Below are positions 1 to 40,176 of a stretch of DNA of 40,176 nt, in pieces; position 1 is the first letter of the stretch, and each line of letters starts with the position of its first letter. A program made the translations under genes and the position numbers. Source of the DNA: Escherichia phage EmilieLinder_Bas103; the sequence record PQ850602.1, one strand, 5' to 3'. The notes below the pieces were generated by a model. The model worked only from the letters and a program-made list of their open reading frames with translations. It searched no databases and had not been told where the DNA came from.

Positions 1-204
1 ATGCTGTCTTTAGATTTTAACAACGAGGTAGTGAAGGCTGCTCCGATTGTAGGGACTGGTGTAGCAGATGGTGCTGCCAGACTATTTTGGGGGCTTTCAT
101 TAAACGAGTGGTTCTATATTGCTGCTATCGCCTACACAGTGGTTCAGATTGGTGCCAAGGTAGTCGATAAGATGATTGACTGGAAGAGAGCAAATAAGGA
201 GTGA
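1..204 (+). CDS. 17.5: Holin (T7 gp17.5-like, class II holin)
   Basis: 67-aa ORF with hydrophobic segments; near-identical to T7 gp17.5 from memory; stop TGA 202-204; RBS aggagg lies at window end (circular permutation). Confidence 0.9.
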   Translation: MLSLDFNNEVVKAAPIVGTGVADGAARLFWGLSLNEWFYIAAIAYTVVQIGAKVVDKMIDWKRANKE

Positions 205-573: not shown

Positions 574-1017
574 ATGCTGCAATTTTTACGTAAGCTAATC
601 CCTTGGGTTCTCGCTGGGATGCTATTCGGGTTAGGATGGCATCTAGGGTCAGACTCAATGGACGCTAAATGGAAACAGGAGGTACACAATGAGTACGTTA
701 AGAGAGTTGAGGCTACGGCGAGCACTCAAAGAGCAATCAATGAAATATCGGCTAAGTATCAAGAAGACCTTGCCGCGCTGGAAGGGAGCACTGATAGGAT
801 TATTTCTGATTTGCGTAGCGACAATAAGCGGTTGCGCGTCAGAGTCAAAACTACCGGAGCCTCCGATGGTCAGTGTGGATTCGAGCCTGATGGTCGAGCC
901 GAACTTGACGACCGAGATGCTAAGCGTATTCTCGCAGTGACCCAGAGGGGCGACGCATGGATTCGTGCGTTACAGGATACTATTCGTGAACTGCAACATA
1001 AGCAGGAAATCAAGTAA
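574..1017 (+). CDS. 18.5: Inner-membrane spanin / Rz-like lysis protein (gp18.5)
   Basis: 147-aa ORF with N-terminal TM segment and coiled-coil; matches T7 gp18.5. Confidence 0.9.
   Translation: MLQFLRKLIPWVLAGMLFGLGWHLGSDSMDAKWKQEVHNEYVKRVEATASTQRAINEISAKYQEDLAALEGSTDRIISDLRSDNKRLRVRVKTTGASDGQCGFEPDGRAELDDRDAKRILAVTQRGDAWIRALQDTIRELQHKQEIK
689..940 (+). CDS. 18.7: Outer-membrane spanin / Rz1-like lipoprotein (gp18.7), embedded in 18.5 in another frame
   Basis: 83-aa ORF fully inside 18.5 in +1 frame; lipobox-like ...ATISGC followed by Pro-rich region; T7 gp18.7 is 83 aa. Confidence 0.75.
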   Translation: MSTLRELRLRRALKEQSMKYRLSIKKTLPRWKGALIGLFLICVATISGCASESKLPEPPMVSVDSSLMVEPNLTTEMLSVFSQ

Positions 1018-1026
1018 GGAGGCAAC

Positions 1027-2787
1027 GTGTCTACTCAAGCCAATCGTAATGCGCTCGTAGTGGCGCAACTGAAAGGAGACTTCGTGGCGTTCCTGTTCGT
1101 CTTATGGAAGGCGTTAAACCTTCCGGTGCCAACTAAGTGTCAGATTGACATGGCTAAGGTACTGGCGAATGGAGAAAACAAGAAGTTTATCCTACAGGCT
1201 TTCCGTGGTATCGGTAAGTCATTCATCACATGTGCGTTCGTTGTGTGGTCCTTATGGAGAGACCCTCAGTTGAAGATACTTATCGTATCAGCCTCTAAGG
1301 AACGTGCAGACGCTAACTCCATCTTCATTAAGAACATCATTGACCTTCTACCGTTCCTAGCTGAGTTAAAGCCAAGACCCGGACAGCGTGATTCTGTAAT
1401 CAGCTTTGACGTTGGCCCAGCTAAACCTGACCACTCTCCTAGTGTTAAATCGGTGGGTATCACTGGTCAGTTAACTGGTAGCCGTGCTGACATTATCATT
1501 GCGGATGACGTTGAGATTCCGTCGAATAGTGCAACTATGGGTGCCCGTGAGAAGCTATGGACTCTGGTTCAGGAGTTCGCTGCGTTACTTAAACCGCTGC
1601 CTTCCTCTCGCGTTATCTACCTTGGTACACCTCAGACCGAGATGACTCTCTATAAGGAACTTGAGGATAACCGTGGGTACACCACTATCATCTGGCCTGC
1701 TCTGTACCCAAGGACGCGTGAAGAGAACCTCTATTACGCACAGCGTCTTGCTCCTATGTTACGCGCTGAGTACGATGAGAACCCTGAGGCACTCGCTGGG
1801 ACTCCTACGGACCCTGTGCGCTTTGACCGTGATGACCTGCGTGAGCGTGAGTTGGAATACGGTAAGGCTGGCTTCACACTACAGTTCATGCTTAACCCGA
1901 ACCTGAGTGATGCCGAGAAGTACCCTCTGAGGCTCCGTGACGCTATCGTAGCGGCCTTAGACTTAGAGAAGGCCCCAATGCATTACCAGTGGCTTCCGAA
2001 CCGTCAGAACATCATTGAGGACCTTCCTAACGTGGGTCTTAAAGGTGATGACCTGCATACCTATCATGATTGTTCCAACAACTCAGGTCAGTATCAACAG
2101 AAGATTCTGGTCATTGACCCTAGTGGTCGCGGTAAGGACGAAACAGGTTACGCTGTGCTGTACACCTTGAACGGTTACATCTACCTTATGGAAGCTGGAG
2201 GTTTCCGTGATGGCTACTCCGATAAGACCCTTGAGTTGCTCGCTAAGAAAGCGAAGCAATGGGGAGTCCAGACGGTTGTCTATGAGAGTAACTTCGGTGA
2301 TGGTATGTTCGGTAAGGTATTCAGTCCTATCCTTCTTAAACACCACAACTGTGCGATGGAAGAGATTCGTGCTCGTGGTATGAAGGAGATGCGTATTTGT
2401 GATACCCTTGAGCCAGTCATGCAGACTCACCGCCTTGTCATTCGTGATGAGGTCATTAGGGCCGACTATCAGTCCGCTCGTGATGTAGACGGTAAGCATG
2501 ACATTAAGTATTCACTGTTCTACCAGATGACCCGTATCACCCGTGATAAAGGCGCTCTGGCTCACGATGACCGATTAGATGCCCTTGCGTTAGGCGTTGA
2601 GTATCTCCGTGAGTCCATGCAGTTGGATTCCATTAAGGTCGAAGGTGAAGTGCTTGCTGACTTCCTTGAGGAGCACATGATGCGTCCTACAGTGTCTGCC
2701 ACGCACATCATTGAGATGTCTGTGGGAGGGGTTGATGTGTACTCTGAGGACGATGAGGGTTACGGTACGTCTTTCATTGAGTGGTGA
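1027..2787 (+). CDS. 19: Terminase large subunit / DNA maturation protein B (gp19)
   Basis: 586-aa ORF, GTG start after RBS taaggagg; Walker-type ATPase and nuclease regions; near-identical to T7 gp19 (586 aa). Confidence 0.95.
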
Positions 2788-2866
2788 TTTATGCAGTAGG
2801 ATTGCATAGGGATTCATTAGAGACCACGGAAGGTCGATTTTTAAGTTATTGAATATAAAGAGAAAT

Positions 2867-2889
2867 CAATTCGACTCACTATAGGGAGA
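2867..2889 (+). promoter_or_regulatory. T7 RNAP promoter phiOR
   Basis: CAATTCGACTCACTATAGGGAGA, close match to 23-bp T7 promoter consensus; +1 G about 2884; upstream of gene 19.5. Confidence 0.8.
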
Positions 2890-3043
2890 GGAGGGACGAA
2901 AGGTTACTATATAGATACTGAATGAATACGTATAGAGTGCATAAAGTATGCATAGTAGTGTACCTAAAGTGACCTCTAAGAATGGTGATTATATTATATT
3001 AATATCACCTTAACTTAAAGACCAACATAAAGGGAGGAGACTA

Positions 3044-3193
3044 ATGTTCCGCTTATTGTTGAACCTATTGCGGCATAGAGTCACCTACCGCTTTCTTATG
3101 GTACTTTGTGCTGCCATTGGGTACGCATCGCTTACTGGAGACCTCAGTTCACTGGAGTCTACCGTTTGCTCTTTACTCACTTGTAGCGATTAG
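3044..3193 (+). CDS. 19.5: gp19.5-like small protein
   Basis: 49-aa ORF MFRLLLNLLRHRVTYRF... with RBS agggaggag; absent from ORF track (<60 aa); matches T7 gp19.5 from memory. Confidence 0.7.
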   Translation: MFRLLLNLLRHRVTYRFLMVLCAAIGYASLTGDLSSLESTVCSLLTCSD

Positions 3194-3432
3194 GGTCTTC
3201 CTGACCGACTGATGGCTCACCGAGGGATTCAGCGGTATGATTGCATCACACCACTTCATCCCTATAGAGTCAAGTCCTAAGGTATACCCATAAAGAGCCT
3301 CTAATGGTCTATCCTAAGGTCTATACCTAAAGATAGGCCATCCTATCAGTGTCACCTAAAGAGGGCCTTAGAGAGGGCCTAAGGAGTCCCTAGAGGGTCC
3401 TTTAAAATATACCATAAAAATCTGAGTGACTA

Positions 3433-3591
3433 TCTCACAGTGTACGGACCCAAAGTTCCCCCATAGGGGTCCCTAAAGCCCAGCCAATCACCTTGAGTCA
3501 ACTTTCAGTTGACTTTGAGGGTCCCTAAGGGTTGGGGTTGGTCCTTTGGGTTTGTCTTTGAGTGTTGCTTTGAGTGTCTCTTTGTGTCCCT
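3433..3591 (+). repeat. Terminal repeat (single copy, as at a concatemer junction); mature genome ends predicted here
   Basis: Begins TCTCACAGTGTACGGACC and ends ...GTGTCTCTTTGTGTCCCT, matching T7 160-bp direct terminal repeat from memory; only one copy in window, so repetition is inferred. Confidence 0.6.
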
Positions 3592-3602
3592 ATCTGTTAC
3601 AA

Positions 3603-3732
3603 CCTCCTAAAGTCACCTCCTAAAGTCACCTCCTAAAGTCACCTCCTAAAGTCACCTCCTAAAGTCACCTCCTAAAGTCACCTCCTAAAGTCACCTCCTA
3701 AAGTCACCTCCTAAAGTCACCTCCTAAAGTCA
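3603..3732 (+). repeat. Perfect tandem array: 10 x 13-bp unit CCTCCTAAAGTCA
   Basis: Directly counted 10 identical head-to-tail 13-bp units immediately right of the terminal repeat; T7 has irregular CCTAAAG-containing repeats here. Confidence 0.95.
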
Positions 3733-3893
3733 TTCCTACCGTCTACAGCCTAAAGCCTAAACCTAAAGACCCATCAAGTCAACGCCTATCTTAAAGTATC
3801 CTCTAAAGACCAGCCTAAAGCCTATCCCTAAAGCCTATCCTATAGATGCCCTGTTGTTGCCTATAAAGAGATAATCTTCAATCATTGTCTTTC

Positions 3894-3916
3894 TAATACG
3901 ACTCACTATAGAGAGA
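3894..3916 (+). promoter_or_regulatory. T7 RNAP promoter phiOL (variant, GAG at +1..+3)
   Basis: TAATACGACTCACTATAGAGAGA; one change from consensus in the initiating region. Confidence 0.7.
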
Positions 3917-3979
3917 CAGACAGAGAGAGACTACTTAAAGAGCCTTAAAGAGAGAAATTAAAGTTTTTAAAAAAGAGTA

Positions 3980-4008
3980 TTGACTTAAAGGGTCATAGGG
4001 TTTACTAT
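3980..4008 (+). promoter_or_regulatory. Host sigma70 early promoter A1
   Basis: -35 TTGACT, 17-bp spacer, -10 TACTAT; upstream AAAAAGAGTA A-tract; corresponds to T7 A1. Confidence 0.75.
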
Positions 4009-4105
4009 TCATCTCGTCAACGGGACAACGGCCCAAAGCCACTCCCTGAGATACCGGAGTCAACCGGATAAGTAGGCAGCCTGTAAGCCATACGAAAAAC
4101 AGGCA

Positions 4106-4135
4106 TTGACAACATGCAGTAACATGCAGTAAGAT
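4106..4135 (+). promoter_or_regulatory. Host sigma70 early promoter A2
   Basis: -35 TTGACA, 18-bp spacer, -10 TAAGAT; corresponds to T7 A2. Confidence 0.7.
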
Positions 4136-4213
4136 ACACAGCGTCAATCGGTAGCACACGGTGTCTTCTAGGTGACTTAAGCGCACCACGGCACATAAGG
4201 TGAAACAAAATGG

Positions 4214-4242
4214 TTGACAACATGAAGTAAACACGGTACGAT
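4214..4242 (+). promoter_or_regulatory. Host sigma70 early promoter A3
   Basis: -35 TTGACA, 17-bp spacer, -10 TACGAT; corresponds to T7 A3. Confidence 0.75.
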
Positions 4243-4335
4243 GTACCACATGAAACGACAGTGAGTCACCACACTGAAAGGTGATGCGGTCTAACGAAAC
4301 CTGACCAAAGACGCTCTTTAACAATCTGGTAAATA

Positions 4336-4398
4336 GCTCTTGAGTGCATGACTAGCGGATAACTCAAGGGTATCGCAAGATGCCCTTTATGATATCCA
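4336..4398 (+). promoter_or_regulatory. RNase III processing hairpin R0.3
   Basis: Hairpin ...ACTCAAGGGTATCGCAAGATGCCCTTTATGAT... upstream of gene 0.3, as in T7. Confidence 0.5.
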
Positions 4399-4424
4399 CT
4401 AACAACACTATGAGGTAACACAAG

Positions 4425-36700: not shown

Positions 36701-37712
36701 CTCTCCTTGGACGATGATGTTGAATGGCACTACTAACTACCTTCTGGATGCTGCGCGTCAAGGGATGCTTGGGGATATTATTAGTGCCACCTTAACAGGT
36801 AAGACTACCCGCTGGGAGAAAGAAGGATTCCTTCGGGGTGCCTCCGTAACTCCTGAGCAGATGGCTGGCATCAAGTCTCTCATCAAGGAACATATGGTAC
36901 GTGGTGAGGACGGTAAGTTTACCGTTAAGGACAAGCAAGCGTTCTCTATGGACCCACGGGCTATGGACTTATGGCGACTTGCTGACAAGGTAGCTGATGA
37001 GGCAATGCTGCGTCCACATAAGGTGTCCTTACAGGATTCCCATGCGTTCGGAGCACTAGGTAAGATGGTAATGCAGTTTAAGTCTTTCACTATCAAGTCC
37101 CTTAACTCTAAGTTCCTGCGAACCTTCTATGATGGATACAAGAACAACCGAGCGATTGACGCTGCGCTGAGTATTATCACCTCAATGGGTCTCGCTGGTG
37201 GTTTTTATGCTATGGCCGTACACGTCAAAGCGTATGGGATGCCTAAGGAGAAACGTAAGGAGTACTTGGAGCATGCATTGGACCCAACCATGATTGCCCA
37301 CGCTGCGTTGTCTCGTAGTTCTCATTTAGGTGCTCCTTTGGCTATGGTTGACCTCATTGGCGGTGTCTTAGGGTTCGAGTCATCCAAGATGGCTCGCTCT
37401 ACGATTCTACCTAAGGACACCATGAAGGAACGTGACCCAAACAAGCCGTACACCTCTAGAGAGGTAATTGGCGATATGGGTTCAAACCTTCTGGAACAGA
37501 TGCCTTCTGCTGGCTTTGTGGCTAACGTAGGGGCGACCCTGATGAATGCTGCTGGTGTGGTTAATTCACCTAACAAAGCAACCGAGCAGGATTTCATGAC
37601 TGGCTTAATGAACTCTACAAAAGAGTTAGTACCGAACGACCCATTGACTCAACAGCTTGTGTTGAAGATTTATGAGGCGAACGGTGTTAACTTGAGGGAA
37701 CGTAGGAAATAA
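33756..37712 (+). CDS. 16: Internal virion core protein D with N-terminal lytic transglycosylase domain (gp16)
   Basis: 1318-aa ORF; N-terminal SLT-like motif ...AWTESRFVPTAKSKTGPLGMMQF; near-identical to T7 gp16. Confidence 0.97.
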   Translation: MDKYDKNVPSEYDGLFQKAADATGVSYDLLRKVAWTESRFVPTAKSKTGPLGMMQFTKATAKAMGLRVTDGPDDDRLNPELAINAAAKHLAELVRKFDGDELKAALAYNQGEGHLGNPQLEAYSKGDFASISEEGRNYLRNLLDVAKSPMAGQLETFGGITPKGKGIPAEVGLAGIGHSQKVTQELPESTSFDVKGIEQEAPAKPFAKDFWETHGETLDEYNNRSTFFGFKNAAEAELSNSVAGMAFRAGRLDNGFDVFKDTITPTRWNSHIWTPEELEKIRKEVKNPAYINVVTGGSPENLDDLIKLANENFEADSRAAEAGLGAKLSAGVIGAGVDPLSYVPMVGVTGKGFKLINKALVVGAESAALNVASEGLRTSVAGGDADYSGAVLGGFVFGAGMSAISDAVAAGLKRSKPEAEFDNEFIGPMMRLEARETARNANSTDLSRMNTENMKFEGEHNGVPYAELPTERGAVVLHDGSVLSASNPINPKTLKEFSEVDPEKAARGIKLAGFTEIGLKTLGSDDADIRRVAIDLVRSPTGMQSGASGKFGATASDIHERLHCTDQRTYNDLYKAMSDAMKDPEFSTGGAKMSREEVRYTIYRRAALAIERPELQKALTPSERIVMDIIKRHFDTKRELMENPAIFGNTKAVSIFPESRHKGTYVPHVYDRHAKALMIQRYGAEGLQEGIARSWMNSYVSRPEVKARVDEMLKEVHGVNEVTPEMVEKYAMDKAYGISHSDQFTNSSIIEENIEGLVGIENNSFLEARNLFDSDLSITMPDGQQFSVNDLRDFDMFRIMPAYDRRINGDIAIMGSTGKTTKELKDEILALKAKAEGDGKKTGEVHALMDTVKILTGRARRNQDTVWETALRSINDLGFFAKNAYMGAQNITEISGMIVTGNVRALGHGIPILRDILYKSKPVSAKELKELHASLFGKEVDQLIRPKRADIVQRLREATDTGPAVANIVGTLKYSTQELAARSPWTMMLNGTTNYLLDAARQGMLGDIISATLTGKTTRWEKEGFLRGASVTPEQMAGIKSLIKEHMVRGEDGKFTVKDKQAFSMDPRAMDLWRLADKVADEAMLRPHKVSLQDSHAFGALGKMVMQFKSFTIKSLNSKFLRTFYDGYKNNRAIDAALSIITSMGLAGGFYAMAVHVKAYGMPKEKRKEYLEHALDPTMIAHAALSRSSHLGAPLAMVDLIGGVLGFESSKMARSTILPKDTMKERDPNKPYTSREVIGDMGSNLLEQMPSAGFVANVGATLMNAAGVVNSPNKATEQDFMTGLMNSTKELVPNDPLTQQLVLKIYEANGVNLRERRK

Positions 37713-37732
37713 TACGACTCACTATAGGGAGA
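37710..37732 (+). promoter_or_regulatory. T7 RNAP promoter phi17 (class III)
   Basis: TAATACGACTCACTATAGGGAGA overlapping gene 16 stop. Confidence 0.9.
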
Positions 37733-37784
37733 GGCGAAAGAATCTTCTCCCTGTAGTCTCTTAGATTTACTTTAAGGAGGTCAA

Positions 37785-39581
37785 ATGGCTAACGTAATTA
37801 AAACCGTTTTGACTTACCAGTTAGATGGCTCCAAGCGTGATTTTAATATCCCGTTTGAGTATCTAGCCCGTAAGTTCGTAGTGGTAACTCTTATTGGCGT
37901 AGACCGAAAGGTACTTACGATTAATACAGACTACCGTTTTGCTACGCGTACTACCATATCACTGACCAAGGCTTGGGGTCCAGCCGATGGCTACACGACC
38001 ATCGAGTTACGTCGAGTAACCTCCACGACCGACAGATTGGTTGACTTTACGGATGGTTCAATCCTCCGTGCGTATGACCTCAACGTTGCTCAGATTCAAA
38101 CAATGCATGTAGCAGAAGAGGCCCGTGACCTTACTGCTGATACCATCGGTGTCAATAATGATGGTCACTTGGATGCCCGTGGTCGTAAGATTGTGAACCT
38201 AGCGTTCGCTACTGGCGACTATGATGCTGTTCCTCTGAAGCAGATTAAGGAACGTGAGAACTCTGCGTGGAACGCTGTTATTAAATCTGACGAACACGCT
38301 AACCGCTCCAACAGGGAAGCCAACCGCTCACACGACGAAGCTGACCGCGCGAAACGTGAAGCTGACCGCTCAACCCAACAGGCAGGTGCCTCTACGGCAC
38401 AGGCAGTTGAGTCCAAAACGCAAGCTGACCGTTCCAACTCTGAGGCCAACCGTGCTAAAGGTTATGCCGATAGTATGACCGCAAGTGTCGCTGAGGCCAA
38501 GAAGCAAGCTGACCGTTCCAACTCTGAGGCCAATCGTGCCCGTGATGAGGCAAATCGTGCTGCCGGAGAAGTGACTAAGGCTGCTGCTGAGGTTGCTAAA
38601 GCTGCTGCACATGTTGAGACAGCTAATGGACATGCTGACCGTGCTAACACTGAGGCAAACCGCTCTAAGAGTGAAGCTGACCGAGCCACTAACGAGGCCA
38701 ACAAGCTAGGTAGTATGAATGCACTTGCAGGGGCGGTTAGGGGAGTAAGTCCAGACCACTCCGTAGAGTGGGCATCTAATGCCGCGTTTAATGGCGAAAT
38801 TTCTAATAAGCGATCTATAACCTTAATGTCACCTGCTACTACTAACTCTATGGGTCAGATGGTTCATGAGTATGATGGTACTGACGGGCAATACGTATCA
38901 AATACATATTGGGCCATTAAGCACCCACACAGAGGGGATTGGCACATTCCGTATAAGGTTATAAACATACCTAACGACTCTACAGCATGGGAGATGCACT
39001 TCGGGGACTTAATGCGTTGTTTTAATGGATTGAGGGTCGAAGCATATAATAAACCACTAGGTGTTCACAATGGGGCTAATACAGGAGTGAATACCATCAC
39101 GTATGGACCGGGTGATTTAGGCCAAGGTGTGTGGGTATGCAACACCAGATGGAGTTTCTACGACGCAGGGTTAGAAATTGGATGGGTTCGCGGCGGCTCT
39201 ACTAATGGTAACGGCCTAATCAGGTGGAAACCAGAATCATCGCAATCCACGTATCACGATATTTGGCTAAACCCCAATGGCGAGGTGCAATTCCCAGCTG
39301 CGATTAAGGCAGGTGGTGCCACGGTCGCCGTTGATGGTAACATTGGCGGCTCTATCTGGGGTGGTCATCTATACGGATGGCTTAGAGAAAACACAGTCAA
39401 CCACATTTCGATGGGTGGTGTTAACTTGTCGCAGCTATGGAGGGCTGGAGGTGTTTCTGATGGCGGTGGTAAGGTGATAACTGGTATTATAAACTCGAAC
39501 GGCGATGAGCTGGTTGATGTATGCCAATGGCGAGTAATGCAATACGTCCGTAATAATGGACAACGTTTCAATATTTACTGA
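37785..39581 (+). CDS. 17: Tail fiber protein (gp17), chimeric: T7-like N-terminal domain, non-T7 shaft and distal domain
   Basis: 598-aa ORF; residues about 1-150 match T7 gp17 (MANVIKTVLTYQLDGS...DARGR), remainder differs and is 45 aa longer; shaft has repeated ADRSNSEANRA motifs. Confidence 0.93.
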   Translation: MANVIKTVLTYQLDGSKRDFNIPFEYLARKFVVVTLIGVDRKVLTINTDYRFATRTTISLTKAWGPADGYTTIELRRVTSTTDRLVDFTDGSILRAYDLNVAQIQTMHVAEEARDLTADTIGVNNDGHLDARGRKIVNLAFATGDYDAVPLKQIKERENSAWNAVIKSDEHANRSNREANRSHDEADRAKREADRSTQQAGASTAQAVESKTQADRSNSEANRAKGYADSMTASVAEAKKQADRSNSEANRARDEANRAAGEVTKAAAEVAKAAAHVETANGHADRANTEANRSKSEADRATNEANKLGSMNALAGAVRGVSPDHSVEWASNAAFNGEISNKRSITLMSPATTNSMGQMVHEYDGTDGQYVSNTYWAIKHPHRGDWHIPYKVINIPNDSTAWEMHFGDLMRCFNGLRVEAYNKPLGVHNGANTGVNTITYGPGDLGQGVWVCNTRWSFYDAGLEIGWVRGGSTNGNGLIRWKPESSQSTYHDIWLNPNGEVQFPAAIKAGGATVAVDGNIGGSIWGGHLYGWLRENTVNHISMGGVNLSQLWRAGGVSDGGGKVITGIINSNGDELVDVCQWRVMQYVRNNGQRFNIY

Positions 39582-39593
39582 TAGGAGGACAAT

Positions 39594-40121
39594 ATGGGAA
39601 CTTTACGTCACTATAAGAATTTCGTAAATTATACTCCAGAACGCACCAAAGAGAATGCAGACCTTCTAGACCACGGAGTCGGTTTCTCAAAGGACGAGAA
39701 TGGAAATGACTGGTATGAACTTCGCGAGACATTTCGCGAGGACACATGGAAACTTGTCTATGCTAAAGATGGGTCAGTTATCCAGTGTGAACAGGATGTT
39801 CAGGAGTTAGCCGTTCAGGGTTCTGCTGGGGTAGTTGAACTTGAGGAAATCCCTGCTGAGTACTCTCGGCATACTATGATGCAGTGGTGGTGGGACGGTG
39901 AGAAGCTCACTTGGTATCCAAGATACTTTGAGTACCAGAAGGCTCGTCTAATCGCTATGGCCTCCAAGAAGATTGAGCAGTATGCTGACTTTATGGCACT
40001 TGGGGAGGAGGGATTAGAAGGTCTACTAAATGCGTGGCGAGCCTATCGCCTTGCTGTATATAAAGTGGACCTAAGTGTTCTACCTTTTTACGATTGGCCT
40101 GAGAAGCCTGAGGACTTATAA
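39594..40121 (+). CDS. Tail fiber assembly chaperone (lambda Tfa / Mu gpU family)
   Basis: 175-aa ORF with RBS taggagg; C-terminal motif LLNAWRAYRLAVYKVDLSVLPFYDWPEKP resembles lambda Tfa ...[29 protein letters not shown] and Mu U (recalled); no T7 equivalent. Confidence 0.8.
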   Translation: MGTLRHYKNFVNYTPERTKENADLLDHGVGFSKDENGNDWYELRETFREDTWKLVYAKDGSVIQCEQDVQELAVQGSAGVVELEEIPAEYSRHTMMQWWWDGEKLTWYPRYFEYQKARLIAMASKKIEQYADFMALGEEGLEGLLNAWRAYRLAVYKVDLSVLPFYDWPEKPEDL

Positions 40122-40176
40122 CAACAACACAAGGAAAGACATGTAGTCCACGGAGGGACTCATTTAGGAGGATACA

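Follow-up and report, generated by a model that had tools for sequence, protein, structure and literature searches.

The tail fibre gene (gene 17) of Escherichia phage EmilieLinder (Bas103, PQ850602) and the open reading frame (ORF) of 175 amino acids that follows it form a cassette that is already known, both from this phage and from its relatives. We analysed the complete genome of the phage, a stretch of 40 176 bp (hereafter the window). Humolli et al. (2025, PLoS Biol, PMC11990801) reported a GC content of 0.485 and the O16-type O-antigen as the receptor, pointed in the legend of their S7 Fig. to a Mu-like tail fibre assembly protein (Tfa, Gp60) downstream of the fibre (Gp59), and modelled residues 313–598 of Gp59 together with Gp60 as a heterohexamer with AlphaFold-Multimer (predicted local distance difference test, pLDDT, 74.1; score 0.78; their supplementary file 7). 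The same arrangement has been known since 2008 in Kluyvera phage Kvp1, whose 17–17.2 region was noted by Lingohr et al. (2008, PMC2579914), and the order fibre–tfa is annotated in the records of Kvp1, Yanou, Leclercia phages, LL2, PGX1 and SPLA4. The biology itself being documented, the present analysis adds a map of the joints of the cassette, a natural swap found in phage Bas67 and evidence from codon usage.

The locus resembles phage Mu, with its fibres S/S' and chaperones U/U' (PDB 5YVQ, 8JU3), in that its Tfa aligns with the Mu chaperone from end to end, its fibre tip is similar to that of S' and its chaperone gene is placed directly downstream of the fibre gene. Unlike Mu, EmilieLinder attaches its fibre through the N-terminal domain of a T7 podovirus and not to a myovirus baseplate, and there is no invertible G segment. 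Kvp1 (NC_011534, genes 17 and 17.2) is T7-like and has the same gene order, its Tfa being 83% and its collar plus tip 62% identical to those of EmilieLinder; it differs in being a Berlinvirus that infects Kluyvera and has a middle domain and shaft of its own. The closest counterpart, and the best match for the cassette region in the phage collection searched (93% nucleotide identity), is Cedecea phage Yanou (ON568193), isolated on Cedecea davisae. Its ORF47 and ORF48, annotated as tail fiber protein and tail fiber assembly protein, are colinear with the whole cassette (93.3% in nucleotides; fibre, 91.5%; Tfa, 97.7%), and the 51 amino acid differences between the fibres are concentrated towards the tip (98, 94, 90, 86.5 and 82% identity by successive segment). 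With T7 gp17 (NP_042005; PDB 4A0T, 7BOZ) the EmilieLinder fibre shares the PF03906 N-terminal domain, a heptad shaft, the hinge, the collar and the phi17 promoter, as well as the flanking DNA (gene 16 and, at the other end of the locus, the stretch that precedes the holin gene), whereas T7 has a larger, chaperone-independent tip, lacks tfa, has a shaft 45 amino acids shorter and uses the rough lipopolysaccharide (LPS) core as its receptor.

The product of gene 17 is a mosaic fibre, colinear along its length, in which a T7 N-terminal adaptor, a shaft of the Bas64/Bas104 type, a rare middle domain and a Mu S'-like tip follow one another. Both genes have the sizes given in an earlier, preliminary description of this DNA, namely 598 amino acids for the fibre (T7 gp17, 553), with the entire excess of 45 amino acids lying in the heptad-repeat shaft, and 175 for the ORF downstream. 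That description had similarity to T7 confined to the N-terminal domain and ending at 38235, which is correct for the DNA (94% identity by blastn up to 38233, resuming at 40128) but not for the protein, since residues 1–339 align with T7 1–296 by BLASTP, the shaft facing T7 151–296, and the hinge motif and a DGNIxGxxWGG collar are common to both fibres. Nor has the shaft been replaced relative to the nearest relatives. It is of the ordinary Bas64/Bas104 type, with Bas64 96% identical in DNA up to 38721 (homology resuming at 40144) and 92.5% identical in amino acids over residues 1–321; the genome backbone is 98% identical to both of these BASEL phages, EmilieLinder itself being a Teseptimavirus. 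Shaft length probably varies through gain and loss of repeats.

Beyond the Bas64 junction the blastn homologies are staggered. Yanou is colinear throughout, Bas67 (ErnstBeyeler, a Berlinvirus) matches only from 38651 to 39382 (75%), Leclercia phage 10164-302 (a Teetrevirus) matches from 39333, PGX1 from 39378 and Kvp1 from 39525, the last also at the hinge (38651–38728, 88%), which is where the Bas67 homology starts. The blocks shared with Leclercia 10164-302, PGX1 and Kvp1 all extend through tfa into the holin gene. The proximate relatives of the cassette are other T7-like phages, with 14 records spread across Teseptimavirus, Teetrevirus and Berlinvirus.

The shaft contains seven in-register repeat copies at multiples of 21 nucleotides across 38282–38701, and two 48-nucleotide copies (38408–38455 and 38492–38539) are 92% identical. 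Minus-strand ORFs in the same region (38219–38704) were set aside as artefacts of this periodicity.

The 175-amino acid ORF is assigned by homology to the Tfa family, as a chaperone of the Mu U type, and the profile searches thereby bear out the family proposed for it in the preliminary description. Its score of 39.4 bits for PF02413 (Caudo_TAP) exceeds the cut-off of 22.1 (E = 7.9e-10; residues 45–173 against profile positions 4–131 of 131), it matched the PHROG 136 family, 'tail fiber assembly protein' (1.2e-38), and its sole match among all PDB sequences was Mu U (5YVQ_B; E = 1.4e-10; residues 5–173 against 2–175). Identity is 28% to Mu U and 31% to Mu U', and the C-terminal motif W..Y...V..VD...WP.KPE is conserved. 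PHROG matches fall into N-terminal families (residues 6–107) and C-terminal families (residues 111–174), consistent with two domains, the monomer model having a pLDDT of 41. By tblastn, 14 phage records encode a Tfa of at least 80% identity and 181 more one of less than 60%. The former, where displayed or inspected, were all T7-like (Yanou, PGX1, LL2, Seera, SPLA4, Leclercia 10164-302 and Kvp1), and the latter include Mu, D108, P1, P2-like, BP63-like and 4MG/PVP-SE1-like myoviruses. A scan of IMG/VR gave Kvp1 as the only close relative together with seven distant matches, and homologous-protein searches gave only two and three close matches.

The C-terminal end of gp17 is a 65-residue tip similar to that of Mu S'. 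Its last c. 55 amino acids are 43% identical to S', the G(-) fibre, over 53 amino acids, and the tip matched PDB 8JU3_A (Mu S/S') with E = 3e-7. It aligns with Mu S' and not with the T7 tip, and the pyramid and tip domains that form the C-terminus of T7 gp17 (PDB 4A0T) have no counterpart here, only hinge and collar matching T7. No Pfam match to a C-terminal intramolecular chaperone of the kind present in Bas102, T5 pb1 and K1F was obtained in gp17 at E ≤ 1. An exhaustive HMMER search with residues 313–598 against 1.84 billion representative proteins returned 44 relatives, 40 of which match collar and tip only, with the remaining four reaching into the middle domain. In full-length relatives the tip is at the C-terminus, and the N-terminal anchors of the tip-bearing proteins are those of T7 (PF03906), lambda Stf (PF08400) and P2 H (PF12571 and PF03406) or trimerization regions of the gp37/gp34 type. 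The tip is therefore of the Tfa-dependent kind, as had been claimed, ending fibres of the P2, lambda-Stf and gp37 types. Because one tip occurs on such different anchors, the last 82 amino acids together with tfa are a promiscuous module, which phages with contractile or long tails also possess.

One further carrier is Salmonella phage vB_SeEM_UALMA_PCSE1 (PQ314491), a phage of 70 kb that is not T7-like, in which an 835-amino acid tail protein ends in collar and tip (33% identity) and its gene is followed by a PF02413 Tfa gene and by endolysin and holin genes (943–4006 of the retrieved stretch).

The view that a module was imported from an unrelated phage lineage consequently needs to be narrowed. 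It stands for the last 82 amino acids and tfa, that is, for the sequence from 39333 onwards, which by homology is the only part shared with other phage lineages; it does not extend to the middle domain, which is confined to the Studiervirinae. The import is also old. A blastn search with tip and tfa against 5426 complete E. coli genomes gave no match and hence no recent prophage donor, and similarity to other lineages is only c. 30–43% in amino acids; the recent exchanges took place among the Studiervirinae.

Tip and tfa are co-inherited. They constitute one homology block from 39333, and the tip is present in 14 records of T7 size, a Tfa with 80% identity or more likewise in 14. Bas67 (MZ501064) offers a natural domain swap, in which the need for a Tfa appears to follow the tip. 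It has the same middle domain as EmilieLinder (71% amino acid identity; 2431–3490 of the retrieved stretch, corresponding to 38651–39382 of the window), but past the collar it continues into a T7-type tip (48% identical to T7 439–553), and no gene, and thus no tfa, follows the fibre gene in the last 44 bp of the record. In T7 and Bas64, too, the tip is of the T7 type and tfa is absent. Across these three phages, therefore, the presence of Tfa tracks the type of tip and not the middle domain. Within the T7-like set Tfa is more conserved (83–98% identity) than collar plus tip (62–82%), which argues against Tfa as the main determinant of specificity.

In two other T7-like phages the position between the fibre and holin genes is also occupied by unannotated small ORFs, one of 127 amino acids in Bas104 (AnnaIndermaur, PQ850595; 4301–4684 of the retrieved stretch), whose fibre has a T4 gp37-like segment (PHROG 1699), and one of 158 amino acids in Erwinia phage pEa_SNUABM_57 (3406–3882 of the retrieved stretch). 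Neither had a Pfam or PHROG match; both may be unrecognized fibre chaperones.

The middle domain, which is the probable receptor-binding body of the fibre, has few relatives, namely those in Yanou (86–90% identity) and Bas67, one metagenome fragment and, distantly, pEa_SNUABM_57. In the HMMER search it was matched only by a Yanou-like representative and a 545-amino acid pEa_SNUABM_57-like protein, with three others partial. Searched alone it gave no match in Pfam or PHROG (PHROG 4242 included), and the IMG/VR scans returned no relative of it. Its profile matches T7 gp17 at the hinge (T7 238–298) and at the collar (T7 431–453), with an overall E of 1.6e-5 and nothing in between, so that the architecture is colinear with that of T7 gp17 even where the sequence differs.

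Codon usage sets the same region apart. The preliminary description had remarked on AT-richness at 38760–39581, and in bulk composition this is not significant (46.5% GC against 48.5% for the genome, standard deviation 2.1; 16th percentile). Third codon positions and codon usage are nevertheless outlying over 38721–40121. The GC content at third positions (0.443 against 0.516 ± 0.029) is the most extreme among runs of the same size, and the codon-usage score (z = −3.7) is the lowest of all codon runs of that size in the genome. The dinucleotide signature was marginal (top 3.7%) and may reflect amino acid composition, for which reason the codon test was amino-acid-normalized and of the leave-out type. 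By segment, the score was normal in the shaft (38235–38720; z = +0.8), most deviant of all stretches of its size in the genome in the middle domain (38721–39332; z = −3.9) and mildly low in the tip (39333–39581; z = −1.3) and in tfa (39594–40121; z = −1.2). The break in composition thus falls at the Bas64 junction at c. 38721 rather than at 38235, and is mainly due to the middle domain.

These data also bear on the possibility that most of the distal fibre was never imported, the middle domain (residues 316–516) being a fast-evolving vertical descendant of T7 299–430 and only tip and tfa having been acquired. The colinear matches to T7 gp17 at both borders, with similar spacing, speak for such descent, as does the observation that every relative detected for the domain either has a T7 N-terminal domain or belongs to the Studiervirinae. 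We nonetheless find it somewhat doubtful, given the absence of detectable similarity between the two borders, the strongest codon-usage deviation in the genome and a patchy distribution across genera (Teseptimavirus and Berlinvirus) that points to lateral exchange.

The assembly of the Mu S–U fibre–chaperone complex, reportedly described by North et al. in 2019, served as the model for the mechanism that we propose. By analogy, three Tfa molecules would use their N-terminal domains to bind three gp17 chains at the C-terminal tip, giving a 3:3 complex, and trimerization would begin at that end and proceed like a zip in the direction of the shaft, with gp17 presumably needing Tfa for folding. 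Nucleation of this kind would make tip and tfa travel as one unit. Exchange of that unit, and independently of the middle domain as a separate part, at the two joints (hinge and collar) would retarget the phage, here to the O16-type O-antigen. The expectation in the preliminary description of a receptor unlike that of T7 agrees with the published dependence of EmilieLinder on the O16-type O-antigen (PMC11990801). The cassette would accordingly explain why this phage depends on O16 O-antigen and not on the rough LPS core. For host-range engineering in the T7 family it suggests the rule that fibre parts are exchangeable at the hinge (c. residues 290–315) and at the DGNIxGxxWGG collar (c. residue 517), and that a tip of the Mu S' type must move together with its own tfa gene.

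We hold it to be highly likely that EmilieLinder thus combines a T7-type fibre bearing a Mu S'-like tip with a Mu U-type Tfa that assembles it, exchange of these parts retargeting the phage. Several observations weigh against this. Similarity to Mu is only 28–31% for Tfa and 43% over 53 amino acids for the tip, and the tip had no significant match to Mu S. The AlphaFold2 monomers were unusable (pLDDT 41.3 for Tfa from an alignment of four sequences and 30.6 for gp17 313–598 from three), NCBIfam held no specific model for gp17 or the tfa product, and no functional study of Tfa in a T7-like phage was found in the literature searched. As regards retargeting to O16, Yanou, a phage isolated on Cedecea, has a middle domain of 86–90% identity.

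A pure chaperone is the most likely among the roles that Tfa might play. It might instead stay on the virion as a co-adhesin at the fibre tip, as part of the receptor-binding surface, and contribute to O16 specificity. Passages of PMC10579305 have TfaMu remaining bound to the fibre tip and suggest that it binds the same LPS, and the published prediction for EmilieLinder is a stable heterohexamer (PMC11990801). A determinant of specificity would, however, be expected to vary more than its surroundings. Tfa is 83–98% identical among T7-like phages from Cedecea, Leclercia, Kluyvera, Serratia, Salmonella and E. coli, whereas the fibre tip (62–82%) and especially the middle domains vary more, and we regard a co-adhesin as unlikely. 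Similarly improbable in our estimation is a combined picture in which Tfa on the six short virion fibres serves as a co-adhesin or removable cap modulating O16 binding and, separately, the middle domain represents a new glycan-binding fold.

Less plausible still, and to be given little weight, is that Tfa acts mainly as a transient cap, which would shield the tips of progeny fibres from O-antigen on debris, be shed later and be dispensable for folding. The cap concept has been proposed for fibre chaperones of Alteromonas phages (PMC10579305), and the authors of the BASEL study consider it for phages that target glycans; the Alteromonas chaperones belong to a different family, however, and the 175-amino acid ORF is homologous over its whole length to Mu U, which has a documented role in assembly. 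That this ORF is a decaying or non-functional remnant is hardly credible in view of its intact frame, strong ribosome-binding site, full-length conservation (83–98%) in 14 T7-like records and constant co-occurrence with the cognate tip.

The coordinates of the cassette and its flanks are given in Table 1. The window is circularly permuted; like other records of BASEL phages, it begins with the holin gene and not at the left end of T7, and it ends 55 nucleotides past the 175-amino acid ORF. This ORF consequently lies between gene 17 and holin gene 17.5, where the preliminary description had placed it and where T7 has no gene, by wrap-around of the record and not in the linear window. The order fibre, tfa, holin recurs in Yanou, PGX1, Leclercia 10164-302 and Kvp1, whose Tfa proteins are 83–98% identical to that of EmilieLinder, while in T7 no more than 58 non-coding nucleotides separate gene 17 from the holin gene.

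Table 1. Coordinates in the EmilieLinder window of the gene 17–tfa cassette, its parts and its flanking elements.
Feature	Coordinates	Strand	Evidence or remark
phi17 class III T7 RNA polymerase promoter	37710..37732	+	Perfect 23/23 match to TAATACGACTCACTATAGGGAGA; position as T7 phi17
Gene 17, tail fibre protein, 598 amino acids (Gp59 of EmilieLinder)	37785..39581	+	ORF; PF03906, E = 1.5e-66
N-terminal tail-attachment domain, residues 1–155	37785..38249	+	PF03906, E = 1.5e-66; nearly identical to T7
Coiled-coil shaft, residues c. 156–289	38250..38650	+	21-nucleotide (heptad) periodic repeats; c. 45 amino acids longer than T7 shaft
Hinge/junction motif, residues 290–315, ...ADRATNEANKLGSMNALAGAV	38651..38728	+	First recombination joint; Bas64 homology ends at 38721
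Middle domain, residues 316–516	38729..39332	+	Shared only with a few Studiervirinae phages and one metagenome fragment
Collar DGNIGGSIWGGHLYGWL and Mu S'-like C-terminal tip, residues 517–598, predicted Tfa docking site	39333..39581	+	Leclercia 10164-302 homology starts at 39333
Shine-Dalgarno sequence AGGAGG of tfa	39583..39588	+	Read from the sequence; 5 nucleotides before ATG
tfa, putative Mu U-type tail fibre assembly protein, 175 amino acids (Gp60 of EmilieLinder; Kvp1 gene 17.2)	39594..40121	+	PF02413, PHROG 136, 5YVQ_B
Conserved stretch upstream of holin gene (hairpin 40145–40160 and holin ribosome-binding site), right-hand homology arm of the cassette	40128..40176	+	T7 homology resumes at 40128
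Holin gene 17.5 (context)	1..204	+	ORF; reached from tfa across the record ends

Gene 17 and tfa lie on one strand, separated by 12 nucleotides. With phi17, upstream of gene 17, as the sole promoter and no further T7-type promoter found between the two genes, they are co-transcribed; scans for sigma-70 promoters and terminators gave nothing above shuffle expectation. On the right-hand side T7 DNA homology resumes 6 nucleotides beyond the stop codon of the 175-amino acid ORF. The conserved element there, CACAAGGAAAGAC(A/G)TGTAGTCCACGGA(G/T)GGACTC, with a hairpin just upstream of the holin ribosome-binding site, is common to T7, Yanou, PGX1 and Leclercia 10164-302, Kvp1 retaining the hairpin part only. 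The hairpin (free energy −7.9 kcal/mol; z = −1.6) is not significant alone, and an Rfam scan of 37600–40176 gave no match. Downstream of the holin gene follow the genes for the small terminase subunit, the spanins and the large terminase subunit. No long ORF occurs at c. 2790–4420, where T7-promoter-like sites are present; this stretch probably contains the ends of the genome together with the early control region.

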